From: an uncultured Bacteroidales bacterium
GTDB lineage: Bacteria > Bacteroidota > Bacteroidia > Bacteroidales > FEN-979
Assembly: GCA_903875045.1 (NCBI GenBank)
Contig: CAIQUS010000060.1
Coordinates: forward strand, 5,690 to 69,689
Direction: 5' to 3'
DNA: 64,000 nucleotides
The notes beneath the pieces are model-generated. The model worked only from the letters and a program-made list of their open reading frames with translations. It did not search any database and was not told where the DNA came from. Positions 15,197-64,000 of this stretch are shown here, piece by piece. A program made the position numbers and the translations under genes. Within the stretch, counting starts at the first letter, position 1. Every line of letters begins with the position of its first letter.

Positions 15197-15216
15197 CCAG
15201 GCCTGATCGCCGGATT

Positions 15217-47710: not shown

Positions 47711-47740
47711 CAAACAGGCATTCCAATACCTGAATTGTTG

Positions 47741-49326: not shown

Positions 49327-49339
49327 TTAATTTAAAAGT

Positions 49340-50092: not shown

Positions 50093-50095
50093 CAA

Positions 50096-50141
50096 TCTTC
50101 CCGTCCCCCTCTCCCCGGGAAGAGGGGGACGGGGGGAGAGG
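50096..50141 (+). other. GC-rich stem-loop with two mutually exclusive pairings in the sufC-sufD spacer
   Basis: Pairing A is cccgtccccctct (50100-50112) with agagggggacggg (50121-50133). Pairing B is cctctcccc (50108-50116) with ggggagagg (50133-50141). The sufD ATG is at 50156. Confidence 0.6.
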
Positions 50142-50155
50142 TAAAAAAACATTCA

Positions 50156-51565
50156 ATGCAAACCAACATAAAAGAACCCATCACACTGGAGCGGTTTACC
50201 GGTCTTTATCAAAAGAACCGGGCCTTCCTGATGGTAAACGATACGCCGATGCTGGCCGGAAAAAGGGACCGTGCCTTTGAAGCTTTCTCCACGCTGGGCT
50301 TTCCTGATACAAGCATGGAAACCTGGCGTTTGACCAACCTGGATGAGAGTTTCAGCCGTGGCTACGATTATCACCTCCGTCCCATGGAGGAGGTAGATAT
50401 TCAGAAAGTTTTCCGCTGCAACATCCCACATCTGGATACAGCAGTCATCGGACAGCTCAACGGGTGGTATGTCTCGAAAGATGTTCCGCTGATGGAGCTT
50501 GGCAACGGGATCATCATGGGCAGCCTGGCTGAGGCCCGCAAGAAATATCCTCAGCTGGTTGAAAAATATTTTGGCACCATGGCCGATGATACAAGCGATG
50601 GGTTTACTGCGCTGAATACAGCTTTTGTTCAGGACGGGGTGTTTATTTATGTGCCCGACAATGTGAAAAGCCCAAAACCCGTTCAGCTGATCAATGTCAT
50701 CCATCATGAGGAGAACCTTTTCCTGCAATCCCGGAACCTGATCCTGGTGGGTGCAAATGCCAAACTTTCACTGGTTCATTGCGATGATTCGTATAACCAC
50801 CAGGCCAGTTTTTCAAATATCGTCACCGAAATCCATGTCGGCGAACATGGGGTCATGGACCATTATAAATTACAAAACCTCAACAACAACAGTACGCTTA
50901 TCAGTTCGGTCTTTTTCCGTCTGGAAGCATCCGCCAGCCTTGATTCACATTACATCTCACTCAACGGTGGTTTGTTAAGGAACAATATCTGGGTACTTTT
51001 CAATGGCCCGCACGGAAATGCAAACATTTATGGCATTTACCTGATGGACCGCAAGCAGCATGTTGACAACCAGGTTTTTGTTGACCACGCCTGGCCAGAT
51101 TGTTCGAGTAATGAAACATTCAAAGGAATTCTTGATGAACATGCACGTGCCATCTTCAACGGGCATGTGCTCGTTCGCCGTGATGCCACCAAAACCGATG
51201 CACGCCAGAGTAATAAGAACATATTATTGACAGATACGGCAAGGGTAAATTCCAAACCTTTCCTGGAGATTTACAATGATGATGTTAAGTGTTCGCATGG
51301 CTCGACAACAGGTCAGCTCGATCAGGAGTCGATGTTTTATCTGAGGCAGCGCGGTATTGGTGAGGAAACTGCACGAATGTTGCTGATGTTTGCATTTGCT
51401 GATGAAATAGTTGCGAAAATATCCATCCCGCAATTGCGTCAGCGCATCGAAGACATGGTGAAGAAACGGTTGCAGGGCGAACTCCAGATTTGCGAACAGT
51501 GTGTGCTTCACTGCAGTACCCCAGAGCACCCTGTGGAGTTTTTTATTGACATGAGCAAAGTTTAG
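50156..51565 (+). CDS. sufD: Fe-S cluster assembly protein SufD
   Basis: 469 aa. Beta-helix repeats and a C-terminal 'KCSHGSTTGQLDQESMFYLRQRGI' motif shared with SufB/SufD. Confidence 0.9.
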   Translation: MQTNIKEPITLERFTGLYQKNRAFLMVNDTPMLAGKRDRAFEAFSTLGFPDTSMETWRLTNLDESFSRGYDYHLRPMEEVDIQKVFRCNIPHLDTAVIGQLNGWYVSKDVPLMELGNGIIMGSLAEARKKYPQLVEKYFGTMADDTSDGFTALNTAFVQDGVFIYVPDNVKSPKPVQLINVIHHEENLFLQSRNLILVGANAKLSLVHCDDSYNHQASFSNIVTEIHVGEHGVMDHYKLQNLNNNSTLISSVFFRLEASASLDSHYISLNGGLLRNNIWVLFNGPHGNANIYGIYLMDRKQHVDNQVFVDHAWPDCSSNETFKGILDEHARAIFNGHVLVRRDATKTDARQSNKNILLTDTARVNSKPFLEIYNDDVKCSHGSTTGQLDQESMFYLRQRGIGEETARMLLMFAFADEIVAKISIPQLRQRIEDMVKKRLQGELQICEQCVLHCSTPEHPVEFFIDMSKV

Positions 51566-51600
51566 CGAATATAGAATAACCCATTACGAAATGTTTTTTA

Positions 51601-51679
51601 CCACTTAGGCACTAAGAACACGCAGAGACACTGAGAATAAGAAACTTAGTGATTCTTAGTGTTCTTAGTGTCTTAGTGG
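51601..51679 (+). terminator. Long imperfect hairpin built from inverted short-period repeats, followed by TTTTATT; candidate terminator after sufD
   Basis: ccacttaggcactaagaacac (51601-51621) pairs with gtgttcttagtgtcttagtgg (51659-51679) at 19 of 21 positions. Both arms are arrays of cacNNaga / tcttagtg units. Confidence 0.55.
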
Positions 51680-51696
51680 TTTTATTGTATGAATTA

Positions 51697-53541
51697 ATGA
51701 AGGCCCGCATGAACTCCCCTGTATCTGTATATACGAAACGAATTGAGGATTTCACCTCCGGAATCGACCAGTTGAGGAAGCCGCTTCTGTGGATTCCATG
51801 GCTGAGGCTTTTGTTATTCGTGGGTACAGGTGTTTCAATTTATTATTCTTTCCGGTTCCCGGGACCGCTGTTTGTGGTTGTTTCTGTTTTATCATTCATT
51901 GGCTTTCTAATAGCGGGATTTGTTGACGGTGACTTTAAAAAACGGATCAAACGGTTTGAAAATCTCATCCGGATCAATGAGCTGGAAATTCTGGCGATTG
52001 GCGGAAACTATGCAGGATTTGACCCCGGAAACAGGTTTGTCGACCAGGACCATCCTTATACCCACGATCTTGATATTTTTGGCGAGGGATCTTTATTTCA
52101 ATATGTCAACCGTACGTCAACCATTTTTGGAAGTGAAAGGCTGGCAGATTATTTCAGCAATGCCTTTCATTTCAGTGATAAAATCCTGGAACGTCAGCAA
52201 GCCATCGCAGAACTCACTGACAAGATTGAATTCAGGCAGCAATTCCAACTGATTTTCCATGAACAGGATACCTCCCGCAACGATCTTGCTGCCATGAATG
52301 ATTGGCTGCAAGGACGTGAAAATACAAAGTGGCTCAACCTCATAAAAGTTGTATCCTTCGTTCTTCCGCTGATAACCCTGAGTATACTGCTACTCTCAGT
52401 TGCAGGAAAGCTTCCATATCAGATACCGGTGATCATGGTAACGATGCAAATGTTCATTGTATTCGCCTTCAGCCGCAAAACGCAGTTGGTTCATCAGGCA
52501 GTAACATCTCAGGTTAAGATATTGAAAAAGTATGCGCTGGCACTTTCGCTTATCGAAGAAATATCGTTCACTGCAGACCTCAATATCAAATTACAAAACA
52601 ACCTGAGACATGATCCTTATACCAAGCCGGGCAGAATTATTAAACGGTTTTCAAATTTGCTGAACATGATGGATTCAAACCTGAACCTTCTGGTATCGGT
52701 GATTATGAACGGTTTATTTATGTTCAATATCCATGTGATGATGGCGGTGGAAAGGTGGCGTTTGACTTACCGTGAACTGGTTCCGGTTTGGTTTGATGTA
52801 TTGGCGGAAATCGATGCCCTTTCGAGCCTTGGCACATTTGCGTTTAATAACCCTCAATATATTTATCCGGTTCCCGTATCGGAGGGTTTTCAATTCGTGG
52901 CTGAAAAGATTGGTCATCCGCTTATTCCGACCGAAACACGGGTTGTCAACGACATTGAGATTTCGGGGTGGAACCAATTCCGGATCATCACCGGCGCCAA
53001 CATGTCGGGGAAGAGTACTTTCCTGCGAACGGTCGGCATTAATTTACTGCTGGCCATGACGGGGGCACCGGTTTGCGGAAAGCGACTCATTTTTTATCCG
53101 ATCGAAATACACAGCAGCATTCGCACCAATGATTCGCTGACAAAACGTGAATCGTACTTTTATGCAGAACTCAAACGGCTGAAGGAGATCATTGCCGAAC
53201 TTGAAAGTGGTAATCAGAAGCTGATTTTACTGGATGAAATCCTGAAAGGGACCAATTCCTCCGACAAACAAACCGGATCGATCGCCTTGATCAAACAACT
53301 GATGAAATACAAACTGGCAGGATTATTTGCCACCCATGATCTTGCGTTGGGCGATCTGATCAACCATTATCCCGACAACATCCGGAATCTTTGTTTTGAA
53401 ATTCACATTTCAGGTGATAAAATGGAGATTGATTACAAACTTTCCCCTGGAGTGTGCCGCAACCTGAATGCTTCCTTCCTGATGAAAAACATGGGGATCA
53501 TTCTGGATGAAGATCCTCTGAAAATGAAAGGTGCCATTTGA
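51697..53541 (+). CDS. MutS-related ATPase (MutS domain V) with N-terminal membrane segments
   Basis: Start reset to 'MKARMNSP' (alternative Met at 51709). Hydrophobic helices near the N-terminus and mid-protein. 'ITGANMSGKSTFLRTVG' Walker A, 'LILLDEILKGTNS' Walker B and 'ATHD' motifs. Confidence 0.75.
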   Translation: MKARMNSPVSVYTKRIEDFTSGIDQLRKPLLWIPWLRLLLFVGTGVSIYYSFRFPGPLFVVVSVLSFIGFLIAGFVDGDFKKRIKRFENLIRINELEILAIGGNYAGFDPGNRFVDQDHPYTHDLDIFGEGSLFQYVNRTSTIFGSERLADYFSNAFHFSDKILERQQAIAELTDKIEFRQQFQLIFHEQDTSRNDLAAMNDWLQGRENTKWLNLIKVVSFVLPLITLSILLLSVAGKLPYQIPVIMVTMQMFIVFAFSRKTQLVHQAVTSQVKILKKYALALSLIEEISFTADLNIKLQNNLRHDPYTKPGRIIKRFSNLLNMMDSNLNLLVSVIMNGLFMFNIHVMMAVERWRLTYRELVPVWFDVLAEIDALSSLGTFAFNNPQYIYPVPVSEGFQFVAEKIGHPLIPTETRVVNDIEISGWNQFRIITGANMSGKSTFLRTVGINLLLAMTGAPVCGKRLIFYPIEIHSSIRTNDSLTKRESYFYAELKRLKEIIAELESGNQKLILLDEILKGTNSSDKQTGSIALIKQLMKYKLAGLFATHDLALGDLINHYPDNIRNLCFEIHISGDKMEIDYKLSPGVCRNLNASFLMKNMGIILDEDPLKMKGAI

Positions 53542-53565
53542 AAAACATTTATTTATGTGGCTAAA

Positions 53566-53708
53566 GCCACAGATGTAATTTGCAATCCAAAACAGTTGGC
53601 TAAAGCCAACTGCAATAGATGAAGTGCTCAGAATGATGAATATCTATTGCAGCCAACTTCAGCTGACTGTTTGCAATGACAGCTTATGAGAATAGGGGCT
53701 TTAGCCCC
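53566..53708. repeat. Cluster of nested palindromes sharing a GGCTAAAGCC core in a convergent intergenic region
   Basis: tgtggc-taaa-gccaca (53566-53581), cagttggc-taaa-gccaactg (53593-53612), ctgcaatagat...atctattgcag (53610-53620 with 53642-53652) and ggggc-ttta-gcccc (53695-53708, the same core on the minus strand). Confidence 0.8.
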
Positions 53709-53717
53709 ATTTATATG

Positions 53718-56522
53718 TTATTTTTTATTCACCAGTTCCGGTTTCCCAAAACCAATTTTATCCAGTGGGGCCAGTTGCGTTTTGGCATCCCCGGCAATCA
53801 CATAATACATTTTTAACGGGTCGATGTATTTAGTTGCCAGTGCTTTGAGTTGGTCGATGGTCATGTTTTGCACGATGGCTTGTTCATTTTTCACATAATC
53901 CACAGGCATGTTGTACAAACTGATGTCACTCAACATCCCTATTTTCGCACCGAGCGTTTCAAATTGCCTGGCGTAACCCCTGATGAGGGAATTGCGTGTA
54001 AAATCAAGGTCATCCGCTTTGATCTCCGGTCCGTATCTTGCCATCAGGTCCTTGAAAATTGCCACAGATTCTTCTGTAGCTGATGAACGAACGTTGGCAC
54101 TGGCCATGAAAAATCCGGGAACAATGCCACCGGCAAAACCGGTACGTGCACCATAAGTGTAGCCTTTTTCTTCGCGCAATACCAGGTTAACATTGCCATT
54201 GAAAGATCCGCCCAGTTTGTAATTCATCACAGTTGCAGGAAAATAGTCTTTGTCCTGACGGGCGAGACTCAGGCACCCGATGTTGATCACAGATTGCTTG
54301 GCTCCGGGAACATCGATAAAGTAAATTTTCGACTGTTGCAAAGGCGCGGGCAGGGGGTACGCGGGGAAATTTACTGTCTTTGCTTTCCATTCAGCAGCAA
54401 GTGGCTGAAGGGATGCGGTCACCTTATCTTTTGTGATACTGCCGGCAACCAGGAATGATGCAATGGATGGTGAAAAAGTTTTAGCGTAAAAGGCTTTGAG
54501 GTCGTCGATGGTAATGGCTGCAATGGATTCTTCTGTTCCAGTCCGGTCGGTGGCGAGGATATGGCCTTTACCATAGACCAATTCATTGAATTCATTTCGG
54601 GCAAGTGTTGTCGGACTGGCTTTCTGGCGTTTAATGTTGTTGAGCAAGCGGGTTTTTATCATTGTAAATTCTTCCATATCCCACCTTGGCTCCAGAAGAA
54701 TTTCCTTCGCCAGTGCCAGTACTTCAGTATAGTTTCTGGTAAGCGAATTGGCTGAAAGTGTAATAGAATTGTTCGAAGCATTCAGGTTGATGGATGCTCC
54801 CAGTTTGTCGATCGCTTCTTCAAGTTCGAGAGGTGTTTTGTTTTTGGTACCCTCCATCATCAATTCGCACACAAAATTTGCCACGCCTGGTTTTTCAATC
54901 GGGTCCAGTAAATGGCCTCCCTTCATTTCCACCGAAAACTGGACAAGAGGAAGTTCATCCTGCTCGATGCCAAATATCTGCATGCCATTTGAAAGTTTGG
55001 AATTCCATACCAAAGGAAGATTAAGGGCCGGGTCAGGTCCGTCTGCCGGCATGACGGAACGGTCGATCAGGGTAGGTGTTTTGGTGATCGTCTCATCCAT
55101 TTTGGCCTTAATGTCAACCTGAGCTGCATCAGCAATACTTTCTTCCTTTACAGCGGCTTTCGTTGATCCGTCAACGGCCATGTTCAGTTGTCCTTTTGGC
55201 ACAAAGCTGGTTACGAGAAAAGGCTTGTCTTTGATATATTTGCCATAAACCCTCAGAATATCAGATTTGGTGACAGATTTTAACTTCTCAATGTCTGTTT
55301 TGTAATAGGCAGGATCACCTTTGTCTTCATTATAGGATGCCAACTGAAACGATTTTCCCAGGATGCTGCTGATACCGTTGTAGAAATCGGTCTCCTGGCT
55401 TGCCTTGATGCGTTCCACATCTTCATTGGTAAAACTCTCTTTTTCAAACATGTTAAAGGCTTCAAACACGCCTTTTTCAATGTCATTCAGGTTCACTCCC
55501 TCATTGGCAGTGGCGCTGATCACGAAAGTGCCGGCTATTTCCTGCGAGCCGTTATAAGCGCGTTGGCTGGAAGAGAGTTTTTTCTCTTTTTCAAGAATTT
55601 TATACAGGGGGGCTTTCTTTCCACGGGATAAGATCTGGGCAAGGTATTCCAGTGCATAAGAATCATCCTGGTATGCTTCAACCGTTGGCCAGATCATCCT
55701 GATCTGGGAGGCTTTTGCAAAATTATCTTCATGGTAAATCTTTTTTGTCTTGTCAAGGGTAACCGGGACCGGTTTGGGATCGGCGACAGTTTTGCCGGGT
55801 TTGATCTCGCCAAAATATTTTTCAATGAGCTTTTTTGCCGTTTTTATGTCAAAATCACCTGCCAAAACCAGTGTGGAATTATTTGGAACATAATAGGTGT
55901 CGTGAAACGCTTTTACGTCGGCAACTGTGGCATTTTTGAGATCATCCATCTCGCCGATAACCGTCCAGCTGTATGGATGTCCTTTTGGGTAGAGGTTCGT
56001 GGCCACCACCCAGCTGGTAAATCCATAAGGCTGGTTGTCGTACGATTGCCGTTTCTCGTTCTGAACCACATTCTGCTGGATGTTGAAAGCATTGTCGGTC
56101 ACGGTGTTGATCATATAACCCATACGGTCCGATTCCATCCACAGGATCTTCTCCAGGGCGTTTTTGGGAACTATTTCATAATAGGTTGTCGCATCATTGC
56201 TGGTGCCGCCATTCAGTGTTCCGCCTGCATTCTGGATAATCTTGAAAAACTGGTCTTCCGGAACATTCTCCGACCGCTGGAACATCATGTGCTCAAAAAG
56301 ATGGGCAAAGCCGGTGCGGCCTTCAACTTCGCGGTTTGATCCCACATGGAAGCGGATGGCAAGCGCCACAATGGGGTCGGAACGATCGACATGGAGAATG
56401 ACATCAAGTCCGTTGGACAAGGTGTATTTTTCGAATTCAATTTTCAGTTCAGTCTTTGGCTGGCCAATAGCCAGCTGCATCAGACCTGCAATCGCAAATA
56501 ACAGAAGGAACATTTTTTTCAT
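53718..56522 (-). CDS. Tandem M16-family (pitrilysin/insulinase-like) zinc peptidase, secreted
   Basis: Start reset to the signal peptide 'MKKMFLLLFAIAGLMQLAIGQ'. 'HLFEHMMFQ' is the inverted HxxEH zinc motif. The ~930-aa length is consistent with two fused M16 halves. Confidence 0.85.
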   Translation of the reverse strand: MKKMFLLLFAIAGLMQLAIGQPKTELKIEFEKYTLSNGLDVILHVDRSDPIVALAIRFHVGSNREVEGRTGFAHLFEHMMFQRSENVPEDQFFKIIQNAGGTLNGGTSNDATTYYEIVPKNALEKILWMESDRMGYMINTVTDNAFNIQQNVVQNEKRQSYDNQPYGFTSWVVATNLYPKGHPYSWTVIGEMDDLKNATVADVKAFHDTYYVPNNSTLVLAGDFDIKTAKKLIEKYFGEIKPGKTVADPKPVPVTLDKTKKIYHEDNFAKASQIRMIWPTVEAYQDDSYALEYLAQILSRGKKAPLYKILEKEKKLSSSQRAYNGSQEIAGTFVISATANEGVNLNDIEKGVFEAFNMFEKESFTNEDVERIKASQETDFYNGISSILGKSFQLASYNEDKGDPAYYKTDIEKLKSVTKSDILRVYGKYIKDKPFLVTSFVPKGQLNMAVDGSTKAAVKEESIADAAQVDIKAKMDETITKTPTLIDRSVMPADGPDPALNLPLVWNSKLSNGMQIFGIEQDELPLVQFSVEMKGGHLLDPIEKPGVANFVCELMMEGTKNKTPLELEEAIDKLGASINLNASNNSITLSANSLTRNYTEVLALAKEILLEPRWDMEEFTMIKTRLLNNIKRQKASPTTLARNEFNELVYGKGHILATDRTGTEESIAAITIDDLKAFYAKTFSPSIASFLVAGSITKDKVTASLQPLAAEWKAKTVNFPAYPLPAPLQQSKIYFIDVPGAKQSVINIGCLSLARQDKDYFPATVMNYKLGGSFNGNVNLVLREEKGYTYGARTGFAGGIVPGFFMASANVRSSATEESVAIFKDLMARYGPEIKADDLDFTRNSLIRGYARQFETLGAKIGMLSDISLYNMPVDYVKNEQAIVQNMTIDQLKALATKYIDPLKMYYVIAGDAKTQLAPLDKIGFGKPELVNKK

Positions 56523-56575
56523 GACAGGGGCAGTTTTTGTGAGTGTTAAATCGGCCATAAAGCTACGACTTTTTT

Positions 56576-56651
56576 CTGATCCTGCGCACCTGATCCCACG
56601 CACCTGGCATCGCGCACCCCATGGGCCTGGCATCGCGCACCTAACCCCACG
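56576..56651. repeat. 14-nt (2x7) tandem repeat array in the divergent M16 / sufS promoter region
   Basis: ctgatcctgcgcac ctgatcccacgcac ctggcatcgcgcac [cccatgggc] ctggcatcgcgcac ctaaccccacg. Confidence 0.85.
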
Positions 56652-56668
56652 ATTAAGCGTGGGGTTAG
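56641..56668. other. 11-bp stem hairpin at the end of the 14-nt array
   Basis: ctaaccccacg-attaag-cgtggggttag checked base by base. Confidence 0.7.
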
Positions 56669-56694
56669 ACACAGTCCGCTATCTCTAACTTTCG

Positions 56695-56702
56695 TACTTT
56701 TG
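56695..56702 (+). promoter_or_regulatory. Candidate -7 box (TActTTTG) for sufS
   Basis: tacttttg lies 18 nt upstream of the ATG at 56720. Confidence 0.45.
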
Positions 56703-56719
56703 CAATCTAATCCCAAAGC

Positions 56720-57940
56720 ATGAGTTTAAACATCGAGCAAATAAGAGCTGACTTCCCGATTCTCCACCAGCAGATATACCGGCGCCCGCTGATCTATTTC
56801 GACAACGCGGCATCGACACAGAAACCTAGACTGGTCATTGACGCCATCCGGCACTATTACGAACACGATAACTGCAACATCCACCGCGGGGTGCATTACC
56901 TGAGCGTGAAAGCAACCGAGGCCTATGAGGAAGCACGAAAGGAGATCCAAAGATTTATCAACGCGAAAAGCACACATGAGATCATATTCACCAAGGGCGC
57001 CACGGAATCATTGAACCTCGTGGCTTCCTCTTTTGGGAAACGGTACATCCAAAGGGGTGATGAGGTGATTACCAGCATCATGGAACACCACTCAAACTTT
57101 GTTCCATGGCAGCAGATGTGCCTTGAACGCGGGGCTACTTTGCGTGTATTGGGTATCAATGAACATGGTGAGCTTGATCTGGATGAGCTGAAAGACCTGT
57201 TGAATGAAAAAACCCGGCTGATCGCGGTAACCCATGTGTCAAATGTGCTCGGAACCATCAATCCTGTAAAGGAAATCGTTGGTTTGGCGCATCAGCATGG
57301 CATCCCGGTACTGCTCGACGGTGCGCAGGGTGTTTCACATCTGCCGGTGGATGTGCAGGATCTTGATTGCGACTTCTATTGTTTCTCCGGGCATAAGATG
57401 TATGCCCCTATGGGAACAGGCGTGATGTATGGCAAGGAAAAATATCTTGAGGAATTGCCACCATACCAGCTTGGAGGCGAAATGATTAAAGATGTTTATC
57501 TCGATCATACCACCTTTAATGAATTGCCCTTCAAATTTGAAGCTGGTACACCCAACGTGGAAGGGGTGATGGGGATGAAGGCCGCCATTGCTTACCTGCA
57601 GCAACTCGGAATGGATAATATTGCGGCTTATGAGGAGCGGTTACTGAAATATGCAACCGAGCAATTGTCGGCAATCGAAGGAATTAAATTTTACGGTACT
57701 GCTCCGCACAAGGCCAGCCTGGTTTCATTTATCATCGGGGATATTCATCCTTATGATGCAGGTATGATCATCGATAAAATGGGAATAGCGGTCCGTACAG
57801 GTCATCATTGCGCCATGCCACTGATGGATTTCCTTAAAATTCCCGGAACGGTGAGAGCTTCTTTCGCATTTTACAATACCATGGAAGAGGTTGACCAATT
57901 GATCGCAGCCATTCATAAAGCGAAGGCGATGCTCACTTAA
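56720..57940 (+). CDS. sufS: Cysteine desulfurase, SufS subfamily (class V aminotransferase)
   Basis: 406 aa. 'FPIL......IYFDNAASTQKP', 'HHSN', 'SGHKMYAPMGTGV' (PLP lysine) and 'RTGHHCA' (catalytic Cys). Confidence 0.9.
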   Translation: MSLNIEQIRADFPILHQQIYRRPLIYFDNAASTQKPRLVIDAIRHYYEHDNCNIHRGVHYLSVKATEAYEEARKEIQRFINAKSTHEIIFTKGATESLNLVASSFGKRYIQRGDEVITSIMEHHSNFVPWQQMCLERGATLRVLGINEHGELDLDELKDLLNEKTRLIAVTHVSNVLGTINPVKEIVGLAHQHGIPVLLDGAQGVSHLPVDVQDLDCDFYCFSGHKMYAPMGTGVMYGKEKYLEELPPYQLGGEMIKDVYLDHTTFNELPFKFEAGTPNVEGVMGMKAAIAYLQQLGMDNIAAYEERLLKYATEQLSAIEGIKFYGTAPHKASLVSFIIGDIHPYDAGMIIDKMGIAVRTGHHCAMPLMDFLKIPGTVRASFAFYNTMEEVDQLIAAIHKAKAMLT

Positions 57941-57959
57941 AGGGGTTCCCCTGTGATCT

Positions 57960-59591
57960 TTATTTTCTGATCGTTTCCGCAGATACAGAATCTGCTTTGG
58001 CTTTGCGCTCATCAGCACCCTGATTCACTTCAATCCCGTTTTCGGTCATTTGAAAAGTGGATTCATCTGAGGAATTTATCATGTAATACCAAAATAATTT
58101 AAGTTTTTGGAACTCGGGGGTGAAATGGATGTATTTCCCCCTGGGAACCCTGATAATCACATCGATGATTTGACCACGCCAGCATTCTTCCTTGGGAAGT
58201 CGCAGAAACGGACTGATTTTCAGTGTTGACCCTGATGTGGCTGATTGGAAACGGAGCGCAGTGAGGTGTTGATGTGCCTCCAGCCTGGATTTTCCGCGGG
58301 CCATGGCAACTTGTGTAATGGAAAACAGGCTGTCATTCGATTCTTCAATCTGAATTTTTGGCAAAACATACAACTCCTTGTCTTCTGAAATGATCGTTTT
58401 CCAGTCAGCGAGTAAAATATATTGATCGTTGTCGAGATACTTCATGCCGGGATCATCCTGGAACATAGAAACGAACAGGGTATCGCAATCCGGTTTTTCA
58501 AGTGCGATATCAATTTGTTTTTTGTCATCAAATTTATATAGGTTGTAAATTTTCAGCGCCGATGATGCAAGGAAAAAGAGGGCCAAAACCCAGATGTTGA
58601 ACATGGTAAGCCCAAGATGCCTGATCCGGTCAAAACGGAATACCATCCGCAGTCCGTTGTAAAAAAGCATCAATAATGGAATGCCCAATACCATCAGAAG
58701 GATTACCTGCAAAAACCCAACAGGCATATTGCATCCGATCAATAATTTTGCGAGTTCAGGAAAGGCAAGAACAGTGAACTCATTATCAGAATAAAGTCCG
58801 CCGGTCCATCCAAGTGTGTAGGCAAGCAGGGCGACAAGTAAACTAAGCCCGATGATGATCAGGATTATACCGGAAAGGATAACCAGTCCTCTCCCGAAAA
58901 AAGCCAGAACCTCAACAACTCCTTTTCCGATTACTTCAAAAAAGGATCGTGACCCTGCCCCGGCCCGTTTGACTGTTGCGGCAGATTCACTGGCCATTTG
59001 TCCGATCTGACCGCGAAGTGCAGAGATCTCTTTCCGCATGGATTCTTCGATGCTGGAGATGTTGACTTTTTTGCCACGCATCTCCAGTTTGTCGGTGGTT
59101 GACTGAGCTTCCGGGATGACAAACCAGAGAACGAGGTACAACAGGAAGCCGGAACCTCCGGCCGCAATAAATATGATGAAAATCAACCTTACCCATACCG
59201 GATCAAGGTGGAAGTATGCTGCAATACCAGAGCAAACACCGGCGATGATCTTTTCATCGGGATTCCTGAAAAACCGCTTATTTCCTTTTTCTGTGTCTGG
59301 TGATTGATTGTTGGACTGTGGGTTCTCCTCCGGGTCAATTTCAACCGGTTGTCCCATAATGGCAATGACCTCCGCCACCTCTTCCAGGGTAATAACCTGT
59401 TTCGTTTCTGAGCGTTTCTCATTCAGTATCTCAGCGATACGCGATTCGATGTCATTCAGGATATCCTGGTATCCTTCCTCCTGGCTGAAATGTTTTTTCA
59501 GGTTTTCAAGATATTGGTTCAAGGAAATATAGGCATCCTCATCAATGTGGAACACAATCCCGCCAAGGTTTATCGTCAGTGTTTTTTTCAT
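57960..59591 (-). CDS. PspC-domain membrane protein
   Basis: 543 aa. 'RFFRNPDEKIIAGVCSGIAAYFHLDPVWVRLIFIIF' is a PspC domain, followed by several TM segments and a long C-terminal region. Immediately downstream of padR. Confidence 0.75.
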   Translation of the reverse strand: MKKTLTINLGGIVFHIDEDAYISLNQYLENLKKHFSQEEGYQDILNDIESRIAEILNEKRSETKQVITLEEVAEVIAIMGQPVEIDPEENPQSNNQSPDTEKGNKRFFRNPDEKIIAGVCSGIAAYFHLDPVWVRLIFIIFIAAGGSGFLLYLVLWFVIPEAQSTTDKLEMRGKKVNISSIEESMRKEISALRGQIGQMASESAATVKRAGAGSRSFFEVIGKGVVEVLAFFGRGLVILSGIILIIIGLSLLVALLAYTLGWTGGLYSDNEFTVLAFPELAKLLIGCNMPVGFLQVILLMVLGIPLLMLFYNGLRMVFRFDRIRHLGLTMFNIWVLALFFLASSALKIYNLYKFDDKKQIDIALEKPDCDTLFVSMFQDDPGMKYLDNDQYILLADWKTIISEDKELYVLPKIQIEESNDSLFSITQVAMARGKSRLEAHQHLTALRFQSATSGSTLKISPFLRLPKEECWRGQIIDVIIRVPRGKYIHFTPEFQKLKLFWYYMINSSDESTFQMTENGIEVNQGADERKAKADSVSAETIRK

Positions 59592-59614
59592 GGATTATTA
59601 TATTGTATGTAAAG

Positions 59615-59944
59615 TCAGTTAATTCCGATTATTTTTTCTACCGATCCGATCAAATCCTGCCAATCGGCGGTCAGCCCTGCCAGGTATTTCATACCCGTTT
59701 CGGTAATCTGGTGGTATTTTCGCGGAGGCCCCGATTTCGACTCTTCCCAGCGATACACCGTGAGCCCGTCGTTTTTCAGCCGTGTGAGCAACGGGTACAA
59801 GGTTCCTTCAACAACGATGAGTTTTGCTTCCTTTAACTTCGTGATGATGTCGGAAGCATAAGCGTCCTGTTTTGCGATGATCGCCAGGATACAGAGTTCG
59901 AGGACTCCTTTTCGCATCTGGGCATTTTGGTTTTCTGTGTTCAT
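59615..59944 (-). CDS. PadR-family transcriptional regulator
   Basis: Start reset to 'MNTENQNAQMRKGVLELCILAII'. 'GTLYPLLTRLKNDGL' is a winged-helix PadR signature. Confidence 0.85.
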   Translation of the reverse strand: MNTENQNAQMRKGVLELCILAIIAKQDAYASDIITKLKEAKLIVVEGTLYPLLTRLKNDGLTVYRWEESKSGPPRKYHQITETGMKYLAGLTADWQDLIGSVEKIIGIN

Positions 59945-60015
59945 GCGGCAAAGGTAATATAATTTTAGTACTATGCAATGCAAGGTAGTATAATTTATGA
60001 TTTTTTAACAGAAGA

Positions 60016-60141
60016 GTGGGCGAGTGGACGAGTGGGCGAGTGGGCAGGTGAACGGGTTGACGGGTGAACGGGTGAACGGGTAAACGGGTAGACGGGCGAA
60101 CGGGTAAACGGGTAAACAGGTGGACGGGTGAACAGGTGTGG
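60016..60141 (+). repeat. Tandem octamer array, G-rich orientation, ~15.75 units (left arm of the four-helix-bundle cassette)
   Basis: gtgggcga gtggacga gtgggcga gtgggcag gtgaacgg gttgacgg gtgaacgg gtgaacgg gtaaacgg gtagacgg gcgaacgg gtaaacgg gtaaacag gtggacgg gtgaacag gtgtgg. Confidence 0.95.
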
Positions 60142-60205
60142 ATAAAAGTTATTAACAAAGGGCTTACTTTAATCATTTTTTCTGATAAAGCATTAAATAA
60201 AAGCA

Positions 60206-60556
60206 ATGTATGCACATAAAAAGTTATCTTTATGGCAGGGGAGTATGGATCTTGCGGTAATTGTTTATCGGGTTACAGCCGGATTCCCGAAATCCGAAAT
60301 GTTTGGATTATCAAGCCAGGTCAGGAGATCCGTAGTATCAATTCCAGCAAACATCAGTGAAGGAGCAGGCCGTGGCAGACCGAGAGAATTTATCAGGTTT
60401 CTAAGAATATCAAATGGTAGTCTTTCCGAACTTGATACACATTTGGATCTGGCTTTCCGACTCAATTATATCGAAGCGGAGACCTTTAACGATCTCACGG
60501 GCAAAATGAGAAAAATCAGTGCACAAATTTCCGGTTTGATCAGATCACTGGAATAA
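60206..60556 (+). CDS. Four-helix-bundle protein (23S rRNA intervening-sequence protein / S23p family, the fold family of DGR Avd)
   Basis: 116 aa. 'LAVIVYRVTAGFPKSEMFGLSSQVRRSVVSIPANISEGAGR....EFIRFLRISNGSLSELDTHL' is the characteristic signature of this family. Confidence 0.85.
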   Translation: MYAHKKLSLWQGSMDLAVIVYRVTAGFPKSEMFGLSSQVRRSVVSIPANISEGAGRGRPREFIRFLRISNGSLSELDTHLDLAFRLNYIEAETFNDLTGKMRKISAQISGLIRSLE

Positions 60557-60573
60557 AAACCAAAATATCATTT

Positions 60574-60645
60574 CACCCGTTTACCTGTTTACCTGTTTAC
60601 CTGTTTACCTGTTTACTTGTTCACTCGCCCACTCGTCCACACATT
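60574..60645 (+). repeat. Tandem octamer array, C-rich orientation, 9 units (right arm, mirror image of 60016-60141)
   Basis: cacccgtt tacctgtt x4 tacttgtt cactcgcc cactcgtc cacacatt. 60622-60640 is the exact reverse complement of 60024-60042 (19 nt). Confidence 0.95.
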
Positions 60646-60650
60646 TTCCT

Positions 60651-60658
60651 TAACTTTG
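60651..60658 (+). promoter_or_regulatory. Candidate -7 box (TAacTTTG) for sufE
   Basis: taactttg lies 21 nt upstream of the ATG at 60679, directly after the array. Confidence 0.4.
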
Positions 60659-60678
60659 CTCCTTAAATATAGCCTCCT

Positions 60679-61104
60679 ATGACCATCCCAGAAAAAGAAT
60701 CCCAAATCATCACCGAGTTCGCCATGTTCGACGACTGGATTGATAAATACAATTACCTTATTGAACTTGGGAAAACACTTAACGTGATCGAAGAACAGTA
60801 TAAAACAGACCAATACCTGATTACCGGATGCCAGTCGAAGGTGTGGCTTCACGCATCCATCAGGGAAGGCAAGGTGGTTTTCACCGGCGACAGCGATGCC
60901 ATCATCACAAAAGGGATTGTGAGCCTGCTGATACAGGTGCTTTCCGATCAAACCCCCGATGAAATCATCCAGGCAAAACTGGAATTTATCGACAAGATCG
61001 GTTTGCAGGAACACCTCTCACCAACCCGCAGCAACGGACTTTCGGCGATGATCAAACAGATGAAACTTTATGCCACTGTATTTAAAATGAAACGCGGAAA
61101 CTAA
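60679..61104 (+). CDS. sufE: SufE-family cysteine desulfuration (sulfur acceptor) protein
   Basis: 141 aa. 'DWIDKYNYLIELGK' and 'ITGCQSKVWL' (persulfide-accepting Cys) motifs. Confidence 0.85.
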   Translation: MTIPEKESQIITEFAMFDDWIDKYNYLIELGKTLNVIEEQYKTDQYLITGCQSKVWLHASIREGKVVFTGDSDAIITKGIVSLLIQVLSDQTPDEIIQAKLEFIDKIGLQEHLSPTRSNGLSAMIKQMKLYATVFKMKRGN

Positions 61105-61108
61105 CTAA

Positions 61109-61150
61109 AACCGTTCACACCTTTATCTCCACCCGTTACCCGTCCACCCT
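61109..61150 (+). repeat. Degenerate C-rich octamer array after the sufE stop
   Basis: ccgttcac acctttat ctccaccc gttacccg tccaccct. The 8-nt phase is weak but recognisable and the words are shared with neighbouring arrays. Confidence 0.5.
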
Positions 61151-61156
61151 ATAATT

Positions 61157-61240
61157 CCGTACCTACGGCACGGAAAATGGTTATGATCTATGACTGGCTA
61201 CCAAAAGTTGGCTCCTACGGAGCCGGAAGGTAAATTTGCC
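61157..61240 (+). repeat. 84-nt double-hairpin element, copy 1
   Basis: Hairpin 1 is ccgtacc-tac-ggcacgg and hairpin 2 is ggctcc-tac-ggagcc, 53 nt apart. 72 of 84 positions are identical to copy 2, and both hairpins are 100% conserved. Confidence 0.85.
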
Positions 61241-61242
61241 TG

Positions 61243-61346
61243 CCACTCGTCCACTCGTCCACTTGCCCACTCGTCCACTCGTCCACTTGCCCACTCGCCC
61301 ACTCGTCCACTCGCCCACTTGCCCACTCGCCCACTCGCCCAACTGA
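61243..61346 (+). repeat. Tandem octamer array, C-rich, 13 units, abutting the ATPase stop codon
   Basis: ccactcgt x2 ccacttgc ccactcgt x2 ccacttgc ccactcgc ccactcgt ccactcgc ccacttgc ccactcgc x2 ccaactga. Confidence 0.95.
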
Positions 61347-62470
61347 TCACCCTAAAACCTCCGGATAATTCTTCCGATTAACTTCCCTGAATGTGAAAGG
61401 TTGATATTCTTTGCTAAAACTTTCAGGTATCCGGATTCTCTTTGATGGACTCCATTTAAACTCAAAAGCCTCAAATTCGGCATTTTTTTCCCGCACCAGG
61501 TCAACTTCCTGTTGCTGGTGTGTCCGCCAGAAATAATAAGAGGCGATATTGTCCTCATATTGATCTTTCTTGATGATTTCGCTAACGAGGTAGTTCTCCC
61601 ACAATTTTCCGGTATCATCACGTAATGCAAGTGGGTTGAACTGATTGATCAGGGCGTTTCTTATACCGTTGTCCCAAAAATAGACCTTTCGGGATTTCTT
61701 TATTTCATTGCGTTGATTCCTTGCAAGTGATGGCAGTGTGAAAATTACAAACGACTTTTCCAGAAGATCGAGGTAGCGGATCACGGTATTCCGGTCGCAT
61801 CCTGCAGTTTCTCCCAATTCGGTGAGGGAAACTTCACCGGTGATCTGGAGTGCAAGTGCTTTCAATATTTTGGGAATGATGCTGGGTTTTCTGACCGAAT
61901 CCAATGACAAAATATCCTTGTACAGGTAATCTCCTGCAAGTTCATGAAGGAGCTTTGGCTTTTCCAGTTGTGAAAGAACAATTTCCGGATACATGCCGTA
62001 AATTAGCCGCTGTTCAAGCAGCCGGTTTTCTTCCATTTCCGAAAAAGCCCCGGTCAGTTCTGAATAAGAAAACGGGTGAAGTTGAAACTCAAGTTTTCTT
62101 CCGGTAAGCGGCTCGTGAATAGTGTCCCGTAACCCCAGTGCAGAGGATCCTGTGACAATCAGTTGAATATCCTTCAGATGATCAGTAATCAGTTTTAGTG
62201 TAACGCCAATGTTTTGAATCCGCTGTGCTTCATCGATGATCAGCAATTCCTTGTTTCCAATCCTGTGCTTGAGTTCTGTCGAACCTGGACGGTTGAGAAA
62301 CTGTTCCACATCCGGTTCATCACAATTCAGGAATAAAAATGATTTTCCGATGATTTTGCCAATTCCAGCGCCAGTGTTGTTTTCCCGACCTGCCGTGCAC
62401 CGGTGATGTGAACTGCTTTCCCACTGAAAAGGTATTTTTCAATGACCGCCTGAAGCTTCCTCTGAATCAT
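61347..62470 (-). pseudogene. AAA+ ATPase (AAA_14 + DUF4143 type) interrupted by a -1 frameshift in a homopolymer
   Basis: The N-terminal 47 codons 'MIQRKLQAVIEKYLFSGKAVHITGARQVGKTTLALELA...' (Walker A) stop at 62327-62329. The +2 frame continues 'KIIGKSFLFLNCDEPDVEQFLN...IIDEAQRI...' into the 320-aa ORF. The switch maps to the A4 run at 62354-62357. Confidence 0.75.
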
Positions 62471-62532
62471 AATATATGAATTAATTCACAAGTTTAATAT
62501 AAAATTCATGAATAGGTTCCTATATTTTAATA

Positions 62533-62572
62533 AATGGCGAAATGTCGAAATGGCGAAATAGCGAAATCAGAT
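62533..62572 (+). repeat. Tandem octamer array (AATGGCGA type, 5 units)
   Basis: aatggcga aatgtcga aatggcga aatagcga aatcagat. This is the reverse complement of the CCATTTCG word family. Confidence 0.9.
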
Positions 62573-62587
62573 TTCCTGTAAATAATC

Positions 62588-62671
62588 CCGTACCTACGGC
62601 ACGGAAAATCATTATAATTACTGACCGGCTATCAATATTTGGCTCCTACGGAGCCGAAAGGTAAATTCGCC
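62588..62671 (+). repeat. 84-nt double-hairpin element, copy 2
   Basis: Same two hairpins with the same 53-nt spacing as copy 1. It is flanked by inverted arrays (62533-62572 and 62663-62694). Confidence 0.85.
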
Positions 62672-62766
62672 ATTTCGCCATTTTCCCATTTTCCCTGTTT
62701 ACCCGTTCACCTGTTTCCCTTTCCACCTGCCCACTCGCCCACTTGCCCACTTGCCCACCTGGTCAC
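62663..62766 (+). repeat. Tandem octamer array, 13 units, with a stepwise gradient of unit types, abutting the oxidoreductase stop codon
   Basis: aaattcgc catttcgc cattttcc x2 ctgtttac ccgttcac ctgtttcc ctttccac ctgcccac tcgcccac ttgcccac x2 ctggtcac. Confidence 0.95.
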
Positions 62767-63407
62767 CTCCTCAACAATTTAAACGCATGTCCCCACTCAT
62801 TCCTGAGAAATCCCGGGATACACCACAACATACACAGTGGTTCAATAGCTCTTGCAGCCTCAACCGCACCCATATCCTCAGTTTCCCAGCCAAACTGGCC
62901 GAGGATGGCAGTTACCTGTCTTTTTGCCTCCGGATCGTTACCGCATATAAACATGGATGGTTTGATCCCGCCGAAATCGGGGTTGATCATAAAGTTGTTT
63001 CCCACGCTGTTAAAGGCTTTAACAAACCGTGCTTCGGGCACCACCAACTGCAACTGTTCCATCTGGGAACTGCCGAGATTGGTGTAATATTGCAGTACTC
63101 CGTTCACGGGGGCAGCATCGGCAATAGGATTCGTGGTATCAATCACGATCTTTCCTCGAAAATTGGTAATACCCGCAAGTTGGAGGGCTGCTTCTGCCAT
63201 GTTTCCTTTTACGGCAAGGACGATGATTTCTCCGAATGCAGCAGCATCTCTGAAGCTCCCTGTAACGGCATTGTTCGTTTTGAGCCATTCAGCCAGTTTC
63301 GAAATGTCTCTTGTGCCCAGCATTACGTCATATCCGTGTTTCAGGAAGCCACTTCCCAGCATCTGGGCGACAACGCCTGAACCTAAAATTCCGATTTTTG
63401 TTTTCAT
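62763..63407 (-). CDS. NAD(P)-binding oxidoreductase (NADPH-dependent F420 reductase / ProC-like Rossmann family)
   Basis: 214 aa. The N-terminal 'KIGILGSGVVAQMLGSGFLKHGYDV' dinucleotide fold and overall similarity recalled to NpdG-like proteins. Confidence 0.7.
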   Translation of the reverse strand: MKTKIGILGSGVVAQMLGSGFLKHGYDVMLGTRDISKLAEWLKTNNAVTGSFRDAAAFGEIIVLAVKGNMAEAALQLAGITNFRGKIVIDTTNPIADAAPVNGVLQYYTNLGSSQMEQLQLVVPEARFVKAFNSVGNNFMINPDFGGIKPSMFICGNDPEAKRQVTAILGQFGWETEDMGAVEAARAIEPLCMLWCIPGFLRNEWGHAFKLLRR

Positions 63408-63456
63408 TGTTTTTGAAGGTTTGGTTTATGATTGGTTAGTATACTTGGGTTTGTTG

Positions 63457-63507
63457 GCAAGTGGGCGAGTGGGCGAGTGGACAAGTGGACGAGTGGGCGG
63501 GTGGGGG
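63457..63507 (+). repeat. Tandem octamer array, G-rich orientation, ~6 units
   Basis: gcaagtgg gcgagtgg gcgagtgg acaagtgg acgagtgg gcgggtgg ggg. Confidence 0.9.
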
Positions 63508-63630
63508 AAATTAGTTGTTCCTGGATTTCCACCCGGCAATTACCTCTTTCAAATGAACCCTTCTCTGTTGGCAAAGGAGGAGAGTTTTTGGGGTAAAGTG
63601 TTGTATGTCCTTCCGAGCGCATGGATCGAT

Positions 63631-64000
63631 TCATGAAGAAGTATTATTATCCCCATGTGTCCACCTGCCCACTCGTCCACTCGCCCACTTGCCCACCTTT
63701 TTCCTTATCCTCCCGACCACCGAAAACCTCGACATATCTATCAGTTTATGATTCAGCAGATAGGTAATCACCCTTTTTTCGATTTCATGGTGGAGCGGAA
63801 GGAGGATTGCTATGAGAAAAATTTTAATAAGCAGTACTTTCCAGGGTTCGCCATGAGTGATCTCTTCTATCCTGTGATCAGCCAGTAAAATAATGAACTC
63901 AAAGAGGAAGATGAATGAGAAGAAACCCAGCATCCTGATGATCCACTCGGGAACCTTCAGGCTCCCAAGCATGATCAATAATACAAATGCCGAAAGGATC
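63631..64000 (-). CDS. C-terminal fragment of a membrane protein; reading frame is open to the window edge and its last ~16 codons lie in an octamer array
   Basis: There is no in-frame stop between 63978 and 64000. Two hydrophobic helices are visible. The tail '...KKVGKWASGRVGRWTHGDNNTSS' is translated from the array at 63653-63700. Confidence 0.35.
   Translation of the reverse strand, partial: ILSAFVLLIMLGSLKVPEWIIRMLGFFSFIFLFEFIILLADHRIEEITHGEPWKVLLIKIFLIAILLPLHHEIEKRVITYLLNHKLIDMSRFSVVGRIRKKVGKWASGRVGRWTHGDNNTSS
63653..63700 (+). repeat. Tandem octamer array, C-rich orientation, 6 units (inverted partner of 63457-63507)
   Basis: ccatgtgt ccacctgc ccactcgt ccactcgc ccacttgc ccaccttt. Its reverse complement has the same unit order as 63457-63507. 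Confidence 0.9.

Follow-up and report, generated by a model that had tools for sequence, protein, structure and literature searches.

Background

Intervening sequences (IVSs) of bacterial ribosomal RNA (rRNA) genes constitute the closest described parallel to the element considered here. In Coxiella burnetii, the IVS of the 23S rRNA gene is 428 nt long, is located in helix 45 and contains an S23p open reading frame (ORF); its inverted repeats form a stem, in which processing by RNase III begins at the first repeat, while its 5' region carries two or three tandem GACAGAT heptamers in a number that varies between strains (PMC4990558). The mobility of rRNA IVSs has long been suspected and never explained (PMC4990558). 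The element in question is a four-helix-bundle (4HB) gene of PF05635 ('23S rRNA intervening sequence protein', S23p family), bracketed by two complementary arrays of octamers. It is situated between a PadR gene and sufE in a 64,000-nt stretch of DNA from an uncultured Bacteroidales bacterium (contig CAIQUS010000060.1 of assembly GCA_903875045.1), which is referred to as the window.

Tandem repeats of short units form another relevant group, of which the STRR (short tandemly repeated repetitive) heptamers of Cyanobacteria were reportedly described by Mazel in 1990. MacGregor (2015; PMC4679880) reviews heptamer repeats that occur sporadically in Beggiatoaceae, Cyanobacteria and Bacteroidetes, TAACTGA repeats included, and Mrazek (2007), as cited in that review, ascribes the excess of heptamer repeats to slippage. 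Xanthomonas GGGAATC repeats form G-quadruplexes in vitro. Their inverted pairs in convergent arrangement number 70 per genome and are conserved between species, with no payload gene mentioned (Rehm et al. 2015; PMC4692102).

An earlier description of the window, made from its letters alone (the original prediction), portrayed region 59990-63700 as a mosaic whose genes and elements are delimited by octamer arrays. It mentioned neither the link of the 4HB gene to 23S rRNA IVSs nor the generality of the design in which a gene is enclosed by inverted arrays.

Complementary octamer arrays enclose the four-helix-bundle gene

Period-8 arrays were searched for with Tandem Repeats Finder (TRF) and a lag-autocorrelation scan, with shuffled sequence as a control; those of region 59990-63700 are designated A1-A8 (Table 1). 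A1 and A2, on either side of the 4HB gene, constitute an ordered inverted repeat that mirrors block by block: the outer GAGTGGGC units pair with GCCCACTC, and the inner GGGTAAAC units with GTTTACCT. Their complementarity extends over 66-72 nt at 71-82% (one inverted repeat being 66 nt at 82%). The A1/A2 RNA duplex is calculated at -125.9 kcal/mol, versus -63.6 +/- 5.0 for shuffles (z -12.5), and the minimum-free-energy fold of the whole A1-4HB-A2 module encloses the ORF. The protein encoded between the arms reaches 125 bits against TIGR02436 (cutoff 24), and its closest solved structure is 2GSC, that of XCC0516.

Other arrays of the region pair as well. The A5/A6 duplex, with the second copy of an 84-nt element as its payload, has a z of about -6 (-5.9 to -6.4 with the left part of A6), and the A7/A8 duplex, around a 145-nt segment, a z of about -9. 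Together with A1/A2, these are the three modules of G-array, payload and C-array for which the original prediction had claimed the polarity needed to form stems, and all three prove strongly complementary. A6 and A7 constitute a fourth inverted pair, with an oxidoreductase gene as payload (z -5.5 to -8.0) and with a polarity relative to that gene opposite to that of the 4HB module. A7 is also complementary to A4. Judged by RNA duplex energy, the same-strand control pairs A2/A4 and A3/A4 show no pairing.

The excess of inverted over randomly oriented pairs, on which the original prediction depended, is evident in a census of the window and 80 loci of relatives (1.37 Mb). It comprises 61 pairs of neighbouring arrays no more than 3 kb apart. 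In 11 of them the inverted complementarity exceeds the 99th percentile of a null taken between loci, where about 0.6 would be expected. Direct pairs also number 11; seven of them come from two loci with higher-order repeats, and four independent ones remain.

Table 1. Arrays, genes and repeat elements of region 59990-63700 (window coordinates)
Feature	Position	Strand	Characteristics
A1	60014-60141	+	G-rich, 16 units; lag-8 identity 0.78; outer block of GAGTGGGC-type x4, inner block of GGGTGAAC/GGGTAAAC-type; 5' arm around 4HB gene
4HB leader	60142-60205	+	Conserved words AAGTTATTAACA and TTTTCTGATAAAGC
4HB gene (PF05635)	60206-60556	+	Pfam 1.1e-36
A2	60574-60645	+	C-rich; lag-8 identity 0.83; inner block of GTTTACCT x4-5, outer block of GCCCACTC-type; 3' arm around 4HB gene
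TAACTTTG	60647-60654	+	TAnnTTTG match directly upstream of sufE, read from sequence
sufE	60679-61104	+	PF02657 3e-47; last gene of the insertion-split suf operon
A3	61109-61150	+	C-rich with unit-like words; lag-8 identity 0.38, equal to lags 7 and 9
E1, two-hairpin repeat copy 1	61151-61240	-	CGTGCC-GTA-GGTACG + GCTCC-GTA-GGAGC on minus strand; 3' of AAA gene
A4	61243-61346	+	C-rich, 13 GCCCACTC-type units; lag-8 identity 0.84; abuts 3' end of AAA pseudogene
AAA_14/DUF4143 ATPase gene	61347-62470	-	Frameshifted: N-terminal ORF 62327-62470, C-terminal ORF 61347-62309 (Pfam)
A5	62532-62572	+	5 AAATGGCG-type units; lag-8 identity 0.76; left arm around E2
E2, two-hairpin repeat copy 2	62582-62671	-	86% identical to E1; 3' of minus-strand oxidoreductase gene
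A6	62663-62766	+	Composite, C-rich; lag-8 identity 0.75; begins directly after oxidoreductase stop codon; unit gradient CGCCATTT -> GTTTACCC/GTTCACCT -> GCCCACTC-type; left part pairs with A5, right part with A7
F420_oxidored/NADP oxidoreductase-like gene	62763-63407	-	PF03807 3e-17; weak npdG match; payload of A6/A7
A7	63456-63507	+	G-rich, ~6 GGCGAGTG-type units; lag-8 identity 0.84
145-nt segment	63508-63652		Payload between A7 and A8
A8	63653-63700	+	C-rich, ~5 units; lag-8 identity 0.72; overlaps 3' end of minus-strand ORF

Extent and stability of the arrays

Lag autocorrelation detects 13 arrays at lag 8 (830 nt) in the window, two at lag 7 and one at lag 9; lags 4-6 and 10-12 give no arrays in the window, and shuffled sequence gives none. 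Nine of the 13 lag-8 arrays are located within 60009-63701, and TRF scores of the window arrays reach 142. With head-to-tail octamers in runs longer than chance, the arrays fall within the range of 5-11 nt per unit by which long simple-sequence repeats and STRR are recognized. Unit GAGTGGGC was found only in the window species, where six arrays within 3.7 kb contain it, a distribution that points to local spread by duplication or conversion.

The octamer arrays of the original prediction are non-random and have a clean 8-nt period at seven of the eight positions (lag-8 identity 0.72-0.84), and their share of the region, put at roughly 15-20%, amounts to 15.9% (591 nt). The eighth, described as a degenerate C-array, is A3: per-array lag identity reveals no period-8 signal in it, and A3 is at most a decayed array. 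The statement that every gene and element is delimited by arrays therefore fails for sufE and the first copy of the 84-nt element, which are not array-bounded on the A3 side.

The arrays are not an assembly artefact, because independent metagenome assemblies reproduce them. The spacer from PadR through A1 to the 4HB gene is identical in three other samples; positions 61235-63879 are 99.96% identical in one other sample, with zero indels, and A4 differs there by one substitution and no indel. A1 and A4-A8 keep the same length in other samples, and the sole copy-number difference across samples concerns A2, whose GTTTACCT units number 3 and not 4 in one sample. The frequent copy-number polymorphism typical of contingency loci is absent from this comparison, and the heterogeneity in copy number for which the original prediction had looked to further data is confined to that one difference: the arrays are not hypervariable. 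Assemblies break at the arrays, as is evident from short contigs of the same species that terminate within them.

Some arrays are found at other kinds of sites. An MFS transporter gene (9874-11130) contains, in frame, a 110-nt octamer array (10436-10546); the AAGGTCAC-type units of this array, followed by CACATCAT-type ones, encode KVTGSQGHKVTGPQGH... and probably sit in the central loop of the transporter. Octamer arrays can therefore expand inside coding sequence too. The only period-7 arrays in the window, both in spacers, are of the TTTACGA type (3892-3939) and of the TTTCYAA type (15211-15255). Gene callers extend ORFs through arrays, as two cases indicate. A minus-strand ORF (63631-63978) with hydrophobic stretches and no Pfam family reads through A8, so that its last ~17 residues (..VGKWASGRVGRWTHG..) are array-encoded, and the SufE gene call on contig L090 of a relative is stretched to 226 aa through an array.

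The suf operon as a residence of four-helix-bundle cassettes

The suf operon is a hot spot for 4HB cassettes across Bacteroidota. A survey of 80 suf-centred loci of GTDB Bacteroidota (L006-L085; 1.31 Mb, the window excluded) recovered 16 4HB genes by single-sequence search and one more by iterated profile. All 17 are found either within the suf operon or immediately next to it, on the suf strand; the remaining two-thirds of the loci contain no such gene. The flanks of 8 of the 16 genes have an inverted-repeat score of at least 30, versus 2 of 1492 size-matched random windows (binomial p about 1e-19), and the arms of those eight cassettes are made of 7-8-nt tandem units. Two or three cassettes per operon are present in L066, L075 and L080, the last with the order sufB-4HB-sufC-4HB-sufD, in which the two cassettes have separate arm units. 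The cultured Flagellimonas taeanensis JCM 17757 carries three cassettes around suf. Across lineages every suf spacer is occupied, and in L080 and L029 the arms fill the entire spacer between sufB and sufC.

Arrays as such are less specific to the operon. The loci of relatives contain 82 arrays at lag 7 and 28 at lag 8, and array density in the suf span is 0.124 versus 0.084 per kb (p 0.03), a difference that is not significant without the cassette-bearing loci. The hot spot therefore concerns the 4HB gene and not arrays generally. A functional link of 4HB genes to Fe-S assembly is conceivable. In a study of Fur and iron in Riemerella, the four helix bundle protein RAYM_06462 is iron-responsive like the suf genes, and its locus tag falls between those of the SufA-family protein RAYM_06457 and SufB, RAYM_06467 (PMC5609570).

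In the window, the suf span (47816-61104) follows the order sufB-sufC-sufD-MutS2-like-M16 peptidase-sufS-PspC-PadR-4HB-sufE, with the PadR gene on the minus strand according to Pfam. Its two interruptions comprise the MutS2-like gene and the M16 peptidase between sufD and sufS (51649-56672), and the PspC-domain gene and PadR between sufS and sufE (57960-59983). Two solitary octamer arrays are located upstream of sufB (47664-47711, ACCATTTC-type) and between sufB and sufC (49264-49320, ATGTGATG-type). In other lineages these two spacers hold 4HB cassettes or arrays with other units, and the solitary arrays might be scars of lost cassettes.

The module in related Bacteroidales

Comparison with orthologues yields a dN/dS of 0.10-0.19 for the 4HB gene, which is under purifying selection. 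The corresponding dS values are 1.3 or more, or beyond calculation through saturation, so that neutral DNA has become random between these lineages. Despite the saturated synonymous sites, arms in relatives are still complementary and still built of GGGTRARC units at a period of 8 nt, and simple neutral decay does not predict such conservation.

The closest GTDB genomes belong to uncultured Bacteroidales/Prolixibacteraceae, with SufE at most 80% identical; the window itself has type IX secretion sorting domains, which mark its genome as one of Bacteroidota. Relatives were ordered at the PadR-sufE spacer by the identity of its flanks to the window. In the closest one, represented by L090/L091 (SufE 85%, PadR 87%), the arms are on the same sides, with about 15 GGGTGAGC-type units next to PadR and about 19 next to sufE, and the 4HB gene (72% identical) is inverted between them together with its leader, which in L091 has followed the gene to the opposite arm. 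The inversion is seen in two samples and with two assemblers. L007 (SufE 80%, PadR 83%) has a 126-nt spacer without 4HB gene or arrays, in which the word CACCCGGGTGACCGCTGATCTGCTCA may be a scar; its suf locus has the MutS2-like gene, and the M16 peptidase has no tblastn match there. A forward 4HB gene (69%) followed by sufE occurs in L092-L094 (SufE 80%), with a payload-free hairpin of G-array and C-array in front, and in L006 (SufE 77%, PadR 69%) a forward 4HB gene (55%) is located between GGGTAAAC and GTTCACCC arrays, again followed by sufE. The contig carrying P0007 has a 4HB gene and then sufE, by gene calls only. A 71%-identical 4HB gene with the same arm units is found in another neighbourhood in L089 (nitroreductase, DUF3127, RNase T and exonuclease VII), and more distant relatives have the plain order sufBCDSE, with sufS and sufE directly adjacent. 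Gene order without arrays, which the original prediction regarded as decisive, is thus present among relatives, both in L007 and in these distant ones.

The simplest history that these sequences suggest consists of an ancestral module, one loss and one inversion. The module is ancestral to this Bacteroidales clade and vertically inherited, not a recent insertion. The original prediction had called the mosaic the most accessory-looking part of the window. This applies to the part to the right of sufE, which is lineage-specific, and not to the 4HB module, found at the same site and with the same unit family in relatives with saturated dS.

Payload-free hairpins of G-array and C-array are located at L001 1-200, L003 1-60 and L092 1-130; that of L001 reads GTACACAG GTAAACAG GTATACAG GTAA-TTTG-TGTACCTG TTTACCTG. 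L001 and L003, of the same or related species, have alternative junctions upstream of the sufE arm. These hairpins and junctions may be empty sites or assembly chimeras.

The same design in other phyla

The design of a gene plus arms recurs in housekeeping operons, and its carriers belong to at least four bacterial phyla. The XCC0516 homologue of Xanthomonas campestris (L131 2920-3375) is located between accB and accC and has inverted heptamer arms (GGGAATC GGGAGTG GAGAATC GGGAATC versus inverted CATTCCC CATTCTC GACTCCC TATTCCC). Given this position inside GGGAATC repeats, 4HB genes may be the payload of some of the 70 inverted pairs reported per genome. On cyanobacterial plasmids, five of the six sampled 4HB genes have inverted heptamer arms, and the sites are nrdB-nrdA, cas6-cas4 (twice), parA-like-parB and a position after an integrase. 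A Pyrinomonadaceae acidobacterium has the order bshC-4HB-mutL with GATGTCA / TGACATC arms. In L128/L129, two closely related genomes that differ by one unit in copy number, a heptamer-armed 4HB gene lies between cheY and cheA, and L127 has an octamer-armed 4HB gene adjoining EF-G. G exceeds C on the sense strand of the upstream arm in 13 of 15 cassettes. The contigs that carry homologues of the 4HB gene are mostly very short, as repeated flanks would lead one to expect.

The two cas6-cas4 cassettes lie within a CRISPR-Cas operon (L136 1501-1860 and L137 1489-1857), and in Anabaena sp. 90 the cas1 gene adjoining the cassette is annotated as type I-D cas1d. A Mantel test of protein against arm similarity was significant but was discarded, because conserved flanking suf genes inside the 200-nt windows confound it.

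Interpretation

The reading favoured here, with a probability of about one half, is that the arrays are paired arms of long stems bracketing payloads, and that the founding unit is an IVS-like 4HB cassette residing in an operon. Upon transcription of the region, the arms would pair into a stem of ~70-130 bp around the payload. By analogy with rRNA IVSs, for whose stems experiments have demonstrated it, this stem would be a substrate for RNase III, and the insert would be cut out of the host transcript or insulated from it, which would make the cassette harmless inside an essential operon. The arms would grow and change by replication slippage, while their complementarity would be held by selection for pairing, by conversion between inverted arms, or by both; crossing-over from arm to arm would flip the payload, as in L090/L091. 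The other stems of the 3.7-kb region, which make use of the locally derived unit GAGTGGGC, are read as secondary products of duplication, conversion and payload turnover, not as independent mobile cassettes.

Several points weigh against this reading. The RNA stem, its cleavage by RNase III and the excision of the 4HB cassette from the transcript are postulated by analogy, and mobility is likewise presumed. A match to TAnnTTTG, the Bacteroidetes -7 promoter box, is located upstream of sufE in the window and at the same place in L091, L006 and L007; with a box of its own for sufE and a conserved leader for the 4HB gene, the two arms need not share one transcript. Co-transcription with the host operon is not universal either, since the 4HB gene has the inverted orientation in L091 and, in Nostoc edaphicum, runs against the nrd genes. 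Stems without a 4HB payload, in the window, in L006 and in the 70 Xanthomonas pairs, imply that arrays are not simply a property of 4HB genes. Mismatches between A1 and A2 are of the G.U type in 11 cases and of the A.C type in none (plus strand), and those of the L091 arms, read in the direction of sufE, are divided 13 to 3. Pooled over 20 cassettes, the counts are 53 G.U versus 48 A.C, and counts from tandem repeats are not independent. As a test of selection at the RNA versus the DNA level, mismatch type is not significant overall and therefore cannot serve as proof of the former. Of 17 cassettes, 12 have the more stable duplex on the sense strand (p 0.05), as against only 3 of the 8 strongest stems.

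A rival reading is an action at the level of DNA, where the arrays would form a recombination switch that inverts the payload, or a cruciform or G-quadruplex barrier or insulator for transcription or replication. Counted in its favour is that the mismatch types do not point to RNA overall. The inversion of gene and leader between unchanged arms in L090/L091 also speaks for such a role, as does the potential for quadruplexes: the motif of at least four consecutive G3+ tracts with short loops is present in A1 (12 tracts) and A7 (5 tracts), with loops of 5 nt, and the Xanthomonas repeats combine quadruplex formation in vitro with conserved convergent pairs (PMC4692102). Nevertheless, all samples of the window species have a single orientation and give no sign of ongoing switching, many cassettes of other lineages have A/T-rich arms (AAAGTTT-type) incapable of forming quadruplexes, and the consistently upstream position of the G-rich arm on the sense strand, together with co-orientation with the host, points to a strand-specific role. 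A DNA-level action is considered rather unlikely. Somewhat less probable again is a mobility of the modules like that of integron cassettes, miniature inverted-repeat transposable elements or retroelements; the arrays would be terminal repeats or attachment sites for a recombinase or reverse transcriptase encoded elsewhere, possibly with the Avd-like 4HB protein assisting. The presence and absence of the module at one site among close relatives, the presence of the whole unit of gene and arms in another neighbourhood in L089, the occupation of every suf spacer with up to three cassettes per operon (L066, L075 and L080) and the preponderance of very short contigs among homologues could all be explained in this way; rRNA IVSs have been suspected of mobility (PMC4990558), and the family is related to Avd of diversity-generating retroelements (weak PF22296 match). 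The original prediction was nonetheless right that integrase, transposase and reverse transcriptase are missing from the window, as judged by a Pfam scan of 57 ORFs, which include nearly all those of 110 aa and longer. The 4HB protein scores under the Avd equivalog cutoff, arm units differ among cassettes even inside one operon, inspection of the sequence reveals no target-site duplications at the module, and the PadR-sufE cassette has long been inherited vertically.

The least probable of the alternatives regards the arrays as neutral by-products of slippage, that is, as ordinary STRR-like repeats without function whose inverted pairs arose by chance or by local duplication and inversion. Arrays of 7- and 8-nt units are indeed common in the loci of relatives (82 and 28 in 1.31 Mb), their enrichment in the suf span is mild, unit sequences vary widely among sites and lineages, one array is in frame inside the MFS gene, and slippage is the cause to which the heptamer excess has been ascribed (Mrazek 2007, as cited in PMC4679880). 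Slippage alone, however, does not account for arms that mirror block by block and keep period, unit consensus and mutual complementarity across saturated synonymous sites, nor for inverted partners at about 20 times the null frequency and strongly concentrated around one gene family; the near invariance of the arrays across samples also differs from the hypervariability of slipping repeats.

Beyond the reading of paired arms around an IVS-like cassette, it is tentatively proposed, with more doubt than conviction, that PF05635/S23p genes with tandem 7-8-nt arms form one cross-phylum class of operon-resident elements, of which the 23S IVS is the special case noticed first. If so, these elements colonise the spacers of operons that are essential or conserved, such as suf, accBC, che, cas, nrd, bshC-mutL and rRNA, and are tolerated there through folding and processing of the arms, and the class would explain a substantial share of the so far unexplained heptamer and octamer repeats in Bacteroidota, Cyanobacteria and Xanthomonas (STRR, GGGAATC pairs and the like). 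The 4HB protein may then act on its own arms, or together with a reverse transcriptase, and so maintain or move the element. Three puzzles have been kept separate since about 1990, namely the rRNA IVSs with their S23p ORFs, the genomes rich in heptamers and octamers, and the role of the common 4HB genes; the present comparison suggests that they are one phenomenon. The resulting model would be testable through the processing of arms by RNase III, recombination from arm to arm and inversion of the payload. In practical terms, the places where metagenome assemblies break are predictable from the arms, and called ORFs run on through them.

The right-hand part of the mosaic

The genes that the original prediction had named in the region (4HB, sufE, a frameshifted AAA ATPase and an oxidoreductase) are confirmed by Pfam, and its two copies of an 84-nt element are 86% identical over 84-90 nt. 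The AAA gene is called with the same split in another sample. Nothing equivalent to the AAA pseudogene, the oxidoreductase or the 145-nt segment is found beside sufE in relatives, and this part of the region, the element copies included, is lineage-specific. The 145-nt segment has no ORF, no fold signal (z 0.2 and 0.0) and no similarity among the sequences fetched.

The 84-nt element (E1 and E2) is a repeat of two hairpins with the consensus CGTACC-TAC-GGCACG ... CTACCGAYATTT linker ... GCTCC-TAC-GGAGC. Both hairpins are present on 32 metagenome contigs (L095-L126), where the CCTACGG tips are invariant and the closing pairs covary (GC16/CG6/UA2/AU1 and UA17/AU5/CG2/GC2); on some contigs hairpins of both orientations are clustered, e.g., nine in about 1 kb of L102. 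The minus-strand fold of E1 has a z of -3.3. Both copies are terminator-like on the minus strand, and otherwise promoter and terminator counts in the sequence do not exceed those of shuffles. Octamer arrays are not regular in the flanks of the repeat elsewhere.

As conserved multi-copy extragenic hairpins with structure-preserving variation, the E1/E2 family falls within the description of repetitive extragenic palindromes and bacterial interspersed mosaic elements. It shares with them short covarying hairpins, multiple copies, clustering at ~50 nt and GTAG at the hairpin tip, and it differs in having two different hairpins, in direct orientation, joined by the conserved CTACCGAYATTT linker. 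Neither an Rfam family nor a published one was found for the repeat, which is probably an uncatalogued family of Bacteroidota. Elsewhere in the window, a PemK/MazF-type toxin gene is located at 26235-26567.

Comparison with known systems

Three classes of repeat-associated elements were considered and rejected. The region is not an integron cassette array, as no integrase is present and the delimiters are period-8 arrays and not the single imperfect palindromes of attC sites. It is not a CRISPR array either, given its contiguous 8-nt units without spacers and a single Rfam CRISPR-DR match at E 9.3. A diversity-generating retroelement is excluded by the Avd equivalog (NF033474) score of 19.7 bits against a cutoff of 80 and by the lack of a reverse transcriptase among the scanned window ORFs. 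The resemblance to Avd is confined to membership in related four-helix-bundle families, with weak PF22296 (20 versus a cutoff of 40) and NF033474 matches; the window protein remains below both curated cutoffs, and the window contains no pair of template and variable repeats. Run permissively on the region and on ten contigs that bear the element, Rfam returned only chance matches of microRNA models on long stems, and a scan of the window for tRNA and tmRNA returned none.

The arrays have in common with long simple-sequence repeats and STRR their tandem 5-11-nt units in spacers, a sporadic distribution that includes Bacteroidetes and Cyanobacteria, and a presumed origin by slippage. According to their descriptions, repeats of the STRR type stand alone as direct arrays, in many cases shortly before a start codon, whereas those of the window are matched inverted pairs that bracket a payload and are stable across samples. 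The GGGNATC repeats of Xanthomonas and Nostoc come closer, being short G-rich units with a G3 tract in each, mostly intergenic and often arranged as inverted pairs. They differ in that the window units are not heptamers but octamers of other sequence (GAGTGGGC and GGGTRAAC), and in that many Bacteroidota cassettes are A/T-rich and have no quadruplex potential.

The broader pattern of a gene with arms appears not to have been described previously: literature linking 4HB/S23p genes with tandem or inverted repeats outside rRNA was not found in a search that left subscription literature aside. The closest match is with the IVSs of Coxiella burnetii and Leptospira, which belong to the subset of IVSs with an S23p ORF. 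Like these, the 4HB module has a PF05635/TIGR02436 ORF in the loop of an inverted-repeat stem, tandem repeats in the 5' arm, residence in a host transcription unit, co-orientation with it and no transposase. Copy variation of the repeats, which in IVSs affects the 5' arm, is present with a shift, in that the units are octamers and A2 varies (one sample) while A1 is invariant (three samples). Further differences concern the location in the PadR-sufE spacer of a protein-coding operon and not in an rRNA gene, with no family detected in the window by an Rfam scan at gathering thresholds and thus no insertion into helix 25 or 45 of 23S rRNA; the arms, which are octameric and far longer (72-128 nt, 9-16 units); and the 4HB gene, clearly maintained by purifying selection, as opposed to the decaying ORF of Coxiella. 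The 4HB module is therefore best filed as an intervening-sequence-like cassette outside rRNA.

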